In this document: in pieces, positions 27,582 to 49,534 of the stretch | Numbering within the stretch: position 1 is the stretch's first letter | Layout: the number at the start of each line of letters is the position of its first letter | Assembly (NCBI GenBank): GCA_951406725.2 | Contig: OX597830.1 | Location: 67,828,001-67,892,000, forward strand | Reading direction: 5' to 3' | Source of the DNA: Octopus vulgaris | Lineage: Eukaryota | DNA: 64,000 nt | Notes under the pieces: generated by a model | Seen by the model: only the letters and a program-made list of their open reading frames with translations | Database searches by the model: none | What the model was told of the DNA's origin: nothing | Made by a program: the position numbers and the translations under genes

Positions 27582-28044
27582 CAATTCTAAATTTATTACA
27601 ATTAAGTCTCTCTATTGTTTGTAATATTTGGCAGATAGATTTGACGTCTACGTATACATATCTTGTATTGGTGAAAGAGTAATAGATTTCTATAGTAATG
27701 TTTTCTTAAGAGATGGGTTAGTTGTTGATTATGAGACAAACTGAATTAATTAACATGTGTGTATTTCTAATATATATATATATATATATATATATATATA
27801 TATATATATATATGTTAGAAAGACACACATATATATATATATATATATATATATATATATATATATATATATATATATATATATATATATATATATATAT
27901 ATATATATATATATATATATATATATATATATATATATATACATATATATAAAATATTATTAGAGACAAAACCACTATGTTGCAAAACAAAAAAGGAAAG
28001 ACTTAATCAATACATAAAATTTTAATAAATAGTCAAAAAAACCG

Positions 28045-28087
28045 CCACTACAATTGTTTCTTGTCTTGATCGACAATCTTCAGGTGG
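28045..28087 (-). ncRNA. Minimal type-I hammerhead ribozyme motif (mirror copy)
   Basis: Exact reverse complement of 28134-28176. Confidence 0.8.
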
Positions 28088-28133
28088 ACTTCCAATAAGT
28101 CAGTTTCAAATTTGAAACTGACTTATTGGAAGT

Positions 28134-28176
28134 CCACCTGAAGATTGTCGATCAAGACAAGAAACAATTGTAGTGG
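28134..28176 (+). ncRNA. Minimal type-I hammerhead ribozyme motif
   Basis: CCAC-CTGAAGA-TTGTC gatcaa GACAA-GAAA-CAATTG-TA-GTGG: stem I, CUGANGA core, 5-bp stem II, GAAA, palindromic stem III and a GUA cleavage triplet (cut after 28172). Confidence 0.8.
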
Positions 28177-44042: not shown

Positions 44043-47038
44043 ATGGACACCGCCGGCAACAACGTACACCTCACCTCGATGCTCCTACTGAACATCAGAG
44101 GGCTGAAAACACTCAGTAACAGGACAAAAATCCCGTTCCTGAGAGACTTTGTTGCATGCAATCAAGCCTTATGCATAGCACTTACGGAAACGCACCTGAA
44201 ACCGGACATAGCAGATGCGGAGTTACACATACCACAGTATGCTGTACTACGGACCGACAGAAAGAAAGGAGTCATGAAGGTGTTGCTATGTACATCCGTG
44301 AGGACCTCACACCCCAGGTCCTCTTGTCATACTCAAACTCGGTGTGTGACACACTAATTGTTCATATTAGGCAACTTGATGTAGTTGTGTGTGCTACATA
44401 TCGCCCTCTAGATGCCCCAAGCCATGTGGGCAAGTTTGAAGAATGCCTTATAAAAATAGAAGAAGTTCTAACCACATTAGAACAAGACATAAGTGTACTT
44501 CTTATGAGAAACTTCAATCTGCCCAATGTCAGATGGCCCGAGGGCCTTTCTCTCCCAGGAATGACAAGATGTGAACGAGGACAGGCGAGGTCCCTCCTGA
44601 ACCTCATCAACACCCTGTACATGGAGCAGGTAATACTCCAACCAACCAGGACAGGTAACACACTGGATCTCTGCTTCACAAATGACATGGATCTCATCCA
44701 TAATGTGAAAGTGACACCGACACTACTCTCGGATCACAACATGATAGAGCTGACCATGTACGGGCCAAAAGAGAGCACGGACATGCAGCCTACAAGAAAC
44801 CCTCAGAATCTTTCCAGCTTGAACTACCATAAGGCAAACTGGAAACAAATTGAGAAAGAGATCCTCAAACAAAACTGGCCTAAATGTCTCTCCTTGCCAG
44901 ACATCGACGTGAAACTTCAACAATTCATGTCTGTAATGCAAGCCATATGCTACAAATGTGTCCCAGAGAGAAAGGCCACTGTACACAAGAACAAAATCCC
45001 CAGAGAGAGGAAAATTTTAATGAGACGGCGTACAAAAATTTCAAATCGCCTAAACAAACAGATTGAAAGCAGTGAAAAGTCCCGCCTAAAAATAAAACTG
45101 TTGCAAATCGAAAAATGTCTGCAACTCTCCCATGAAAAAGAAAGAGCAGACAAAGAAGCCTGGGCTATAGACAACATAAAATCTAACCCCAGAGCTTTCT
45201 ACAGGTATGCCAAAGAAACAGCTACGGTGCACTGTAGAATAGGGCCACTCCTTGAAAAGGATGGCACACTTACAGGAAAACCAATGAGGGTAAGTGAAAT
45301 ACTGAATGAGCAATGAAAGAGTGTTTTCACTCCACCCCTTGGGCATCTCCAAATCACCAATCCAACTGACTTTTTTACCACTGCAGATATAGAATCAGAG
45401 GCGGCGACGATAGATTACATCAATATAAAGGAGAACGATGTAATCAAGGCTATAGATGAAATGAAAACAGACTCAGCTACTGGCCCCGATGGATTCCCGG
45501 CAATCCTCCTAAAAGCATGTAAGAGAGTCCTAGCAAGACCACTGCAGTTCCTCTTTCAGAGCTTCCTTGCAGCTGGCAAACTTCCAAGAAAACTGAAGGA
45601 AGGTAAAATATGCCCCATTCATAAAGGAGGTAGCAGAGCGGACGCCAAGAACTACAGACGTATCTCTCTCACCTCACACATCAGCAAGGTCATGGAACGA
45701 ATAGTCAGAAGGAAGCTGATCACCTTCCTTGAAGAGAATGACTTGCTGCCCGACACCCAACATGGTTTCCGACCAGGGAGAAGCTGTTTAACTCAGCTCC
45801 TACAACACTATGACTAGGTGCTGAAACGGCTGCTCAACCACTCAAATGTGGAAGTGATATATCTCGACTTTGCAAAGGCCTTTGATAAAGTCGATCATGG
45901 AATGATATGTCACATACTGCGTGATCTCAACATAGTTGGAAAACTGGGAGAATGGCTTCATGACTTTTTGAAAGATAGAAGTCAGGTGGTAGTAGCCAAT
46001 GGGGCCACTTCCATTAACACGCAAATAGTGAGCGGTGTTCCGCACGGCACTGTTCTGGGACCACTACTGTTCATAATGGCCCTCTCAGACATGCCCTCAG
46101 CCACGCAGAGAGCCACGATCACAAGTTATGCAGATGATACAAAAGTTTCACAGGCAATACAGAACCCCGAGGACACTAAACACCTGCAATGTGAGCTGGA
46201 CAAAATATACAAGTGGGCTGAAAAGAATAGCATGCAGTTCAATGCTGAAAAGTTTCAAGCTTTACACTATCAGCATGCAAAACTAAATGCAATACCCAAT
46301 GAATACACTGGACCCGGAGGAATAGCAATCCCAGAGGCACAATCAGTGCGTGACCTAGGTATTTACATGAGTGATGACGCGACCTTTCGTGTACATGTTA
46401 ATAAATTGGCAATGAAATGTAGACGCCTGGCCGGATGGATCCTCAGAACCTTTAGAACAAGAGAACAAGAAACCATGATGGTCCTCTGGAGGACACTTGT
46501 CCTAAGCCACTTTGACTACTGCTCTCAGTTATGGTCACCATCAAGTATCAAGTTGATCACAGAGCTCGAGGCGATCCAACGTAGCTACACGAAGAAGATA
46601 GCCTCTATGCAGAATGTAAGCTACTGGGAAAGACTCAAGAGATTAAAACTATATTCCCTGGAGCGTAGGCGGGAAAGATATGCCATAATATACATCTGGA
46701 AGATCCTGGAGGGACGTGTCCTAAACTTTGGCATCGAGAGTTACGCAAATGCCAGATATGGGCGCCACTGCGTGGAGCCTAGGACTCCAGACTTACCATC
46801 AAGATGTAGGACAAGATTCTGTGATAGCCTGGGCTTCCGAGGCCCACAGCTCTTCAATATCCTCCCGAAGAACCTGAGAGACCTGCATGGGGTGGATGCA
46901 GATGTCTTTAAAATGAAACTGAATCTCTTCCTGTCAGGTGTCCCAGATGAACCAACTTCAGGGCAGGAGGTGCAGATGAGGGCAGCTGCATCGAACTCTC
47001 TCATGCACCAAATGGCTGTTGCTAAAAAGCTTTCGTGA
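44043..47038 (+). pseudogene. LINE ORF2 (APE endonuclease + reverse transcriptase), disrupted
   Basis: LNIRGL, ALTETHL, LDLCF and SDH (APE); DFAKAFD and YADD (RT). One frameshift near 44262 and stops at 45314 (TGA) and 45815 (TAG), where other copies have TTC and TGG. Confidence 0.92.
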
Positions 47039-47487
47039 AGTAAAACCAAGTAGCAACACCAAATGGCGGTGCCCCAGCATGGCCACAGCTCATAAGCTGA
47101 AACTAGAATCAATCAATCAATCAATCAATCATATATACACATTATATATATATATATATATATATATATATATATATATATATATACACATTATATATAT
47201 ATCATCATCATCATCATCATTTAACGTCCGCTTTCCATGCTAGCATCGGTTGGACTGATATATATATATACACACATTATATATATATATATATATATAT
47301 ATATATATATACACATTATATATATATATATATATACACATATATATATATATATATATATATATATATACAAACATATATATATATATATATATATATA
47401 CACACACATTATATATATATATATATACACACATTATATATATATATATATATATACACACATTATATATATATATATATACACATT

Positions 47488-48127
47488 ATCATCATCATCA
47501 TCATCATCATCGTTTAACGTCCGTTCTCCATGCTAGCATGGGTTGGACGGTTTGATCGGGGATCTGGGAAGCCAGAAGGCTGCACCAGGCTCCAGTCTTA
47601 TCTGGCAGTGTTTCTACAGCTGGATGCCCTTCCTAACGCCAACCACTCCGTGAGTGTAGTGGGTGCCTTTTACGTGCCACCTGCACAGGTGCCAGGCGAG
47701 GCTGGCAACGGCCACGGTCGGATTGGTGTATTTTATGTGCCACCGGCACGGAAGCCAGACGAGGCGGCGCTGGCATCGGCCACGAGTCGGATAGTGCCTT
47801 TTACGTACCACCAGACCAGGGATCCTGGCTGGTTCAATTCGATTTCCTTTGCCTTGCCCCAACATGTCTTCGCAAGCAAAGGGGTTGGCATGGGTGCCTG
47901 TCGTACGGTCAGATTGGTGTATTTTACGTTCCACCGGCACGGAAGCCAGTGGAGGCGGCGCTGGCATCGGCCACGAGTCGGATAGTGCTTTTTACGTACC
48001 ACCAGACCAGGGATCCTGGCTGGTTCAATTCGATTTCGATTTCGCTTGCCCCAACATGTCTTCGCAAGCAAGGGGGTTGGCATGGGTGCCTGTCGTACGG
48101 TCAGATTGGCGTATTTTACGTGCCACA
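47488..48127 (-). mobile_element. RTE-type 3'UTR/SINE with ~191-bp tandem duplication
   Basis: (CAT)n then tttaacgtccg. The unit restarts at 47715, 47906 and 48098. A short duplicate of its end lies at 47201-47258. Confidence 0.8.
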
Positions 48128-49534
48128 TATATATATATATATATATATATATATATATATACACATTATATATTTATATATATATATATATACACACACA
48201 TTACACACATTATATATATATATATATATATATATATATATATATATATATATATACATATATAAAGGTGGATGGAACTTGAGGAGGAGGAAGACCTATA
48301 AATATGTGGGAAAAAGTATGTAAAATGACCTTCAGATTGTGAGTTTCACAGAGGATATGACAAAGATCTGGGTTAATTGATCATTTGGGCTTCAGGAGAT
48401 CTGTCTATCTATGTAAAATCGATGTCCTAACGGCATGTTGTTTATTTCTATACCCCTGCACACAATCCATGTCTCTGAATCTCTCCCCCAAAACATATCT
48501 TCCTATCCCCCTCCCTCCACTCACATTCACTGCATTTTTCTCCCCTCCATCTCCTACTCACCTTTCATAAACTTACCTACCCACTCACCCTATCCAATCC
48601 TCTGTACCAATTCCTATATATACACCTCCCTGTAATTTGATGGAAATGCCCCAATACATCTTCTTCACCCTCTTCTCTCTCCCTCTGGTTCCACCTGGAG
48701 TAGCCATGTATCTCTTCTACTGCAACATATCTGTTTCTGTCCCCTTATTCATACTCTAACTTCTCATCAGCTGGCACAAAGTTACCTCCCTCACTACTAC
48801 TCCCCCCACTCAGTTGCAGTTTCTTGTTTTGCAAGTTACTTGGTCACCTCTCTAGTGTTGGTGCCACATAAAAAGCACCCAGTAAACTCTGTAAAGTGGT
48901 TGGTGTTAAGAAGAACATCTGGCTGTAGAAACCATGCCAAAGCAAATGGTAGAGTCTGGTATGGTCTTCTGGCTTACTAGTTCTTATCAAACCATCCAAC
49001 CCGTACCACAATGGAAGAAGGACATTAAATAATGTTGGTATAGACGATGACGATGATGATGATGATGATGATGATCATCATCATCATCATCATCATCATC
49101 ATCATCATCATCATCATCTTCATCATCATGGCATTGATTTATGTTTTCTAAAACCTGAACATATACTAAACTTTATATTCTAGTCAAGTCATATTTTATA
49201 CAATTTAGACCTAAATGAGGTTATACTTAATGTGAGATGTATTTTAGAAGCAGTTATATTTTATTATTAAGATATAATTAAAAAGATATACATTTTACTT
49301 TAAATCATTTATATATTTTTACCTCATTCAGGTATGTTTTGTACTTTAACCAGGTATGCATTACACCAAGATCTGGTTATACCTTCTACTTTAATCCAGG
49401 TATATTTAAAAATTTAATCATGTATATGTTTTATACACTAACTAGATATGTTTTACCTTAATCAGGCATATTTCATAATTTAATTAGATATATATTTTTT
49501 CTTAATCAATTTATATTTTCTGCTGTAATTTTAG

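Follow-up and report, generated by a model that had tools for sequence, protein, structure and literature searches.

A 64,000-bp stretch of the 2.8-Gb Octopus vulgaris genome (C17:67,828,001-67,892,000, hereafter the window) contains a TRPM intron in which a long (TA)n microsatellite has become a sink for retroelements. Copies of three families of CR1 long interspersed nuclear elements (LINEs), named here A, B and C, of two families of Penelope-like elements (PLEs) and of one short interspersed nuclear element (SINE) were inserted into this tract repeatedly and independently, probably because short alternating TA sites are nicked or paired at insertion, a reading to which we give somewhat better than even chances. 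A match to an Argonauta protein and the near-identity of the LINEs to published Octopus clusters agree with an octopus source. The copies, their junctions, the empty TA sites and the enrichment in genome samples are observed directly. The sink is real, is still polymorphic and results from a graded insertion bias that is common to several kinds of elements; neither a strict specificity nor a feedback driven by insertion is supported.

The (TA)n sink of the TRPM intron

The intron extends from the GT donor at position 23747 to the AG acceptor at 49534 (25,788 bp) and is flanked on the forward strand by two exons, 23614..23746 (start approximate) and 49535..49650 (end approximate), both of which match PF18139, 'SLOG in TRPM' (E 3.7e-12 and 4.6e-06, respectively). 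The identity and the 25.8-kb size of the host intron proposed by a first-pass annotation of this DNA are thus confirmed. The sink itself (27770..48265) occupies 20.5 kb of the intron and comprises 15 merged TA tracts, totalling 4,860 bp with the longest at 39655-40753, that separate 14 islands. These islands contain six pieces of family A, one of family B and one of family C, all eight delimited by self-BLAST, together with two palindromes, a 144-bp element and two SINE pieces. The earlier description, eight CR1 pieces in both orientations, two palindromes and a small island, all bounded by TA, holds at this locus, except that it omitted the two SINE pieces and that one family A piece has no tail. 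An intact tail is kept in the other seven CR1 pieces; it is made of AATC repeats (variants AAAATC and TAAAA) in family A, of ATTTAAGG in family B and of TATCAAAG in family C. It had also been stated that these LINE families do not occur elsewhere in the window; a single 46-bp piece (13483-13527), corresponding to a 3' end shared with a SINE, is the sole match outside the cluster.

A second copy of the locus and its empty sites

The whole window recurs in inverted orientation at C17:79.56-79.63 Mb (L031-L037), this second copy having 1.1-1.4% substitutions in the flanks and 0-1.1% in the shared elements. Contigs of the X3 run carry the letters of this second copy at 19 of the 23 listed differences and one contig carries those of the window, so that the two copies are probably alleles, the second having been left uncollapsed. 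Attempts to delimit the duplicate returned local multi-copy repeats. The order and the junctions of the shared elements are the same in both copies, which argues against a mis-join.

Two insertions are private to one of the copies. A young family A element (38268..39654, + strand) is present only in the window, the corresponding site of the second copy being plain TA (521 bp). Conversely, a 2.8-kb family C element is present only in the second copy, the corresponding site of the window being plain TA (986 bp). Since both empty sites are plain TA, the repeat is the target of these elements rather than their tail, as the first-pass annotation had supposed. Over 995 bp, the private A copy shows 3 substitutions relative to its nearest kin; 49 bp of it are replaced by (TA)n at 39263-39305, with 2-bp overlaps at the two ends of this replacement. 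The private C copy lies 0.15-0.28% from 10 of the 19 kin compared, the range extending to 1.9%. Both private insertions postdate the separation of the two locus copies, and insertion into existing TA is consequently the simpler reading. On the proposal that each insertion duplicates or extends the TA in a positive feedback, the same two sites disagree with each other, and the proposal is not supported: tract lengths, which may carry long-read error, are 1,366 bp (filled) against 521 bp (empty) at the family A site and 595 bp (filled) against 986 bp (empty) at the family C site. The palindromes also differ between the locus copies, a 3.9-kb PLE2 palindrome being found in the second copy and not in the window.

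Junctions of the families across the genome

Genome-wide, the 3'-end patterns returned 4,128 matches for family A, 1,497 for family B (at most one mismatch), 2,246 for family C (exact) and 7,558 for the (ATG)n-tailed SINE used as a control. Junctions were scored on the first 70 family A matches along C1 (0-51.5 Mb), on 28 family B loci (of 30 retrieved, the window and the second copy were set aside), on the first 30 family C matches, on the first 30 arms of each of PLE1 and PLE2, arms of one insertion being non-independent, and on 29 SINE copies (the first 30 matches with one tandem duplicate dropped). All the resulting fractions describe positional samples, mostly from one chromosome, and the sampling, anchored on 3' ends, covers tailed copies only. 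A junction was scored as TA-bound when a (TA)4 run was found within 18 bases, and the background was taken from twenty 10-kb stretches (200 kb).

The 3' ends of the three CR1 families adjoin a TA tract in 41/70 (A), 16/28 (B) and 26/30 (C) cases, that is 57-87%, against 3.1% of background positions. The same holds for the other side of family A, where 33 of 60 5' junctions are TA-bound, and 18 of 22 among copies longer than 300 bp. The preference for TA is therefore real and general beyond this locus, as had been anticipated, but it is a bias. Indeed, 13-43% of the copies lie outside TA tracts, so that nearly all copies in a single target, as in R1/Tx1/R4-type LINEs, is not what is seen here, and the sequence-specific targeting raised by the first-pass annotation is not retained. 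Nor is the preference peculiar to CR1, since the unrelated PLEs are more strongly TA-bound (28/30 arms for PLE1 and 30/30 for PLE2); the SINE is TA-bound in 6 of 29 copies. At these junctions the TA register is overlapped by incomplete tail units, which mask both the cleavage position and any target duplication.

Two earlier procedures were discarded. A looser score, requiring half of the steps to be TA or AT, also passed (AAT)n and gave 46/70 for A, 19/30 for B, 28/30 for C and 11/30 for the SINE over a background of 5.7%; it was replaced by the score above. In a best-match DNA search, 25 of 30 loci proved to be repeats of a single 5.66-kb tandem unit on C28 (L003-L030, 6.8-22.7 Mb, in several arrays), in which the 3' part and tail of family A are followed by non-TA sequence. 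These 25 loci represent one amplified insertion and were for this reason excluded from the counts.

The families also meet one another in the genome. Family C ends lie within 6 kb of a family A end in 5/49 cases (0.8 expected) and family B is found near C in 3/40 (0.44 expected); B near A (2/40 against 1.3) is not significant. Other TA sinks were noticed at C1:46.01-46.06 Mb and C1:119.857-119.872 Mb (L106-L109, L305-L308, L333). The latter holds four family C copies with one common truncation point, which suggests tandem duplication through TA.

The CR1 families and their ORF1

The most complete element of the sink is a full-length family A copy (41804..47130, +), consisting of a 5' untranslated region (UTR) with 76-bp repeats, a first open reading frame (ORF1), an ORF2 encoding an apurinic/apyrimidinic-like endonuclease (APE) and a reverse transcriptase (RT), 3' stem-loops and an (AATC)n tail; its ORF2 is disrupted by one frameshift and two stops. 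Besides the private copy described above, four other family A pieces are present: a tail-less one cut at both ends (29640..31117, +; 98.2% identical to 44664-46141), a 5'-truncated one with an A-rich tail variant (32963..34316, +; 92.4% to the full-length copy), one that lacks about 0.8 kb internally (34450..35067, +; from self-BLAST) and another 5'-truncated one in the opposite orientation (35293..38043, -; 94.4% to 44359-47127). The family A pieces are 89-98% alike and differ in their truncation points, which points to separate insertions. Family B is represented by a 5'-truncated piece with its ATTTAAGG tail (40765..41703, +; 74% to family A) and family C by a 3' piece with its TATCAAAG tail (31282..31598, -).

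In ORF2, the APE domain (PF14529) is N-terminal to the RT domain (PF00078), and both endonuclease and RT align to L1 ORF2p. Identity of ORF2 amounts to 72.5% between A and B, 37.5% between A and C and 38.1% between B and C. Features of CR1 type are seen in the three families, namely a 3' stem-loop with a short tandem-repeat tail and 5' truncation; twin 3' hairpins score z -3.2, -1.9 and -2.8 in A, B and C, respectively. Compared by eye, the RT is almost the same, letter by letter, in family A and O.sinensis_104/135_LINE and in family C and O.sinensis_46/59_LINE (PMC10294476, supplement file 23), and these clusters were assigned by tree to the CR1 clade of the Jockey superfamily (Martelossi et al. 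2023, PMC10294476, supplement file 19). On this sequence evidence A and C are placed in the CR1 clade through clusters classified by tree, and B through its 72.5% identity to A, which supports the earlier identification of a CR1 group with an APE endonuclease. Proto2 and CR1-Zenon, first considered as alternatives, were dropped once the RT had matched clusters classed as CR1.

Several further traits of these families were noted. The 5' UTR of family A (window 41804-43185; L299; L326) starts with a TTCCGG-like motif and contains a variable array of repeats of about 76 bp; the exact family A 5' end occurs only three times genome-wide. Many family A copies (L045-L114) amount to just 37-47 bp beginning at the 3' stem-loop (window 47060-47070), as would be expected of a stall in reverse transcription at this point. 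A U-rich run is common to families A and B at the overlap of ORF1 and ORF2 (window 43925-43935; near 3790 in L325). At two loci of C1, near 6.81 and 32.86 Mb (L047 and L093), a sequence that we take to be related to U6 snRNA directly abuts a family A 3' end of 46 bp, presumably forming U6-CR1 chimeras.

ORF1 of the full-length copy in the window (43186..44004, +) is predicted by profile and model to combine an N-terminal Myb/SANT-like three-helix domain with a CCCH finger. The same organization, a Myb/SANT-like domain followed by one or two CCCH fingers, opens ORF1 in full-length copies of the three families (A, L326; B, L325; C, L314). The match to PF13837 reaches 29.1 bits in C (cut-off 27) and stays under the cut-off in B (E 0.004) and A (E 0.017). 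A single-sequence model of the domain has three helices (7-18, 25-36 and 42-79), and Atlas leads for the domain score 0.82-0.85. A fold search with this model was undiscriminating, with a maximum Z of 5.9 and Myb/SANT entries at Z 4.4-4.6 only. A word search with ORF1 gave no matches, and a full HMMER search returned 37 unnamed relatives. The domain is a candidate for targeting, as a putative DNA binder.

Penelope-like palindromes and other elements

The two palindromes are the ends, or pseudo-long terminal repeats (pLTRs), of PLEs. PLE1 is an inverted pLTR pair with a one-sided extension (27952..28323; palindrome 27952-28269) carrying minimal type-I hammerhead cores at 28138 (+) and 28083 (-). 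PLE2 is a similar pair with a 69-bp one-sided extension (28398..28606; palindrome 28401-28537) and a hammerhead-like core with a weak stem II. Exact core matches number 509 for PLE1 and 1,897 for PLE2 genome-wide, often as inverted minus/plus pairs with a varying spacing. A long PLE2 copy (L302) encodes RT (PF00078) and GIY-YIG (PF01541) domains; in long PLE1 copies (L300/L301) an ORF has, by eye, a GIY-YIG-like C-terminus, with no Pfam match. The first-pass annotation had called both palindromes hammerhead ribozymes. In favor of this, the core motifs (CUGANGA, GAAA, NUH) are present in all four arms, a descriptor scan found two of the four cores, both of PLE1, and the elements are linked to Penelope-like ORFs; against it, the same scan found neither PLE2 core, in which stem II opens with U-U, and a scan against Rfam gave no hammerhead, only hairpin-microRNA noise. 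Folds of the hammerhead monomers are no better than those of shuffled sequences. The hammerheads are accordingly kept as putative.

Among the remaining islands, a 144-bp dispersed element (32585..32728), possibly derived from Penelope, consists of two halves, inverted with respect to a 532-bp tandem unit that occurs at other sites; a TA-flanked copy of the element is present on C16. The two SINE pieces, both delimited by self-BLAST on the minus strand, are a 55-bp 3' piece (47203..47257) and a longer one with an internal duplication (47488..48126), both from the (ATG)n-tailed SINE. A second microsatellite-associated class occurs elsewhere in the window: LINE fragments with a restriction-like endonuclease, which we take to resemble Dong/R4, lie beside (TAA)n runs at 14026-14065, 15234-15283 and 61816-61858.

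What draws the insertions to (TA)n

The bias probably arises because the element endonucleases nick short alternating TA sites, which are concentrated in (TA)n, instead of recognizing the repeat as such. The APE would nick flexible TpA steps, and tail ends such as AATC-A, AAGG-AT and AAAG-TAT would then prime on the nicked strand. A long tract would simply offer a bigger passive target to every family, and its length would change mainly by slippage and TA-TA recombination. In the 200-kb background, TA tracts contain 47-50% of all ATAT/TATA 4-mers, 67% of the corresponding 5-mers and 80-81% of the 6-mers. A preference for four to six alternating bases thus predicts 47-81% of TA-bound ends, the range seen in A, B and C, and one for two or three bases (11-26%) fits the SINE. 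The grading of the bias across unrelated enzymes also counts in favor of this explanation. Outside the tracts, family A copies start at ATA or TAT in 19/29 cases against 14%, and extra CR1 ends near 37 anchored loci are as numerous as their TA bases predict (2 against 1.9 expected, or 4 against 2.4 when the left-out L107-L109 are restored). Several observations nevertheless weigh against a site preference. Partial tail units raise the ATA/TAT count artificially; it reaches 13/24 in the control SINE and only 4/12 in family B. The window holds 5 end-matching copies where 0.29 would be expected under scaling (P 1e-5, for a window chosen post hoc), and at loci selected for long copies there are 4 extra against 0.73. 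TA association is stronger in long than in short family A copies (25/32 against 16/38, P 0.003), which site preference alone does not predict. Finally, a SINE sharing the 3' stem-loop of family A is TA-bound in only 2 of 12 unbiased copies, and in 5 of 15 in TA-rich loci.

In a rival reading, the octopod CR1 elements would be a microsatellite-targeting lineage: their ribonucleoprotein would be anchored to (TA)n through the Myb/SANT-like domain of ORF1 (or through the APE), and long tracts would become self-growing and still-polymorphic sinks. The domain, with its predicted three-helix fold and its PF13837 match in C, is conserved throughout the three families, even where ORF2 identity falls to 38%, and the SINE with the common stem-loop, which would lack the ORF1 protein if mobilized in trans, is far less TA-bound than long A copies (2/12 against 25/32, P 3e-4). 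This SINE may, however, be older or mobilized by another family, the fold search was undiscriminating, many copies lie outside the tracts, and PLEs, which do not have this ORF1, are more TA-bound still. Both the tethering itself and the broader picture of a dedicated lineage are consequently regarded as rather unlikely. Long TA tracts are fragile, and it is a little less likely again that (TA)n cruciforms break and are patched with any retroelement RNA or cDNA at hand, independently of endonuclease. The tail-less piece, the internal deletion and the 49-bp replacement with its 2-bp overlaps would fit such a capture, as would the excess of downstream tracts longer than 400 bp (8/91 against 0/175 background tracts). 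It agrees poorly with the intact tail of seven of the eight pieces, with a median adjoining tract of only 47-101 bp and with the strong differences between families (21-100%), not to be expected of a sink fed by breaks alone.

It is improbable that the TA was made or kept afterwards, either seeded at the ends of the elements or spared by a selection that removed the copies outside TA. The stronger TA association of longer copies and the long TA of the filled family A allele go in this direction; the filled family C allele is however shorter in TA than its empty partner, both empty sites were already long TA, and even very recent copies (0.15-0.3% divergence from kin) have TA on both sides already. 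An assembly mis-join through TA runs is very improbable. TA lengths do differ between the locus copies and may hold long-read error, but in the second copy, in spite of its diverged flanks, the shared elements follow one another as in the window and with identical junctions, and similar sinks exist on C1; the cluster is regarded as real. A preference for short ATAT sites is hence retained as the working explanation, in which nicking, priming and slippage would be the operating steps. In a genome with about 3% of (TA)n, such a loose preference would lead to local pile-ups, here adding 20 kb to an intron and differing between two probable alleles. Should the tethering reading prove true, the targeting device would reside in ORF1 rather than in the endonuclease. 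In either case the octopus families allow a clean test of the seat of LINE target choice: endonuclease, tail or Myb/SANT ORF1.

Comparison with known systems

In the open literature, Repbase entries and most subscription papers aside, no report was found of a (TA)n bias in CR1 LINEs, nor of an ORF1 combining Myb/SANT and CCCH motifs in CR1. As far as this search extends, the bias is new for CR1 and already known for PLEs; the present counts, with their controls, put numbers on it for CR1-clade LINEs. In Octopus vulgaris itself, active CR1 and Penelope families and hotspots of transposable elements have been described, in passages that say nothing on targets (PMC13282606). The O. sinensis clusters whose RT resembles that of families A and C are classed as CR1, in supplementary entries that make no statement on insertion sites or ORF1 (PMC10294476); B is related to them through A alone. 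CR1/L2 elements in general share with the octopus families the two-ORF layout of the Jockey superfamily and a nucleic-acid-binding ORF1, for which types I-V were defined (Metcalfe and Casane 2014, PMC4120745). The ORF1 of the octopus families has a Myb/SANT-like plus CCCH organization, and the words 'Myb' and 'CCCH' are absent from the main text of that paper.

The mechanism favored here is the one discussed by Nishiyama and Ohshima (2018, PMC6007223), in which 3' microsatellite tails of RTE, CR1 and L2 elements overlap the target and influence the choice of site, L1 cutting the TpA bond; their subject, in the parts concerned, is RTE signatures near T stretches, whereas ours is (TA)n sinks and CR1 families. 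PLE1 and PLE2 share with the elements of Craig et al. (2021, PMC8557442) an inverted, 5'-truncated copy, a one-sided tail, a pLTR hammerhead (putative in PLE1 and PLE2) and a microsatellite bias. In that account (TA)n is preferred by Naiads, from which PLE1 and PLE2 differ by a C-terminal GIY-YIG and by their putative hammerheads; they would thus be canonical PLEs, with nothing new in kind.

Microsatellite-specific LINEs comprise Waldo (R1), Dong (R4) and Kibi/Koshi (Tx1). Like them, the octopus families gather their copies in one class of microsatellite. They belong, however, to another clade, insert in both orientations, leave 13-43% of their copies outside the tracts and share their bias with unrelated elements.

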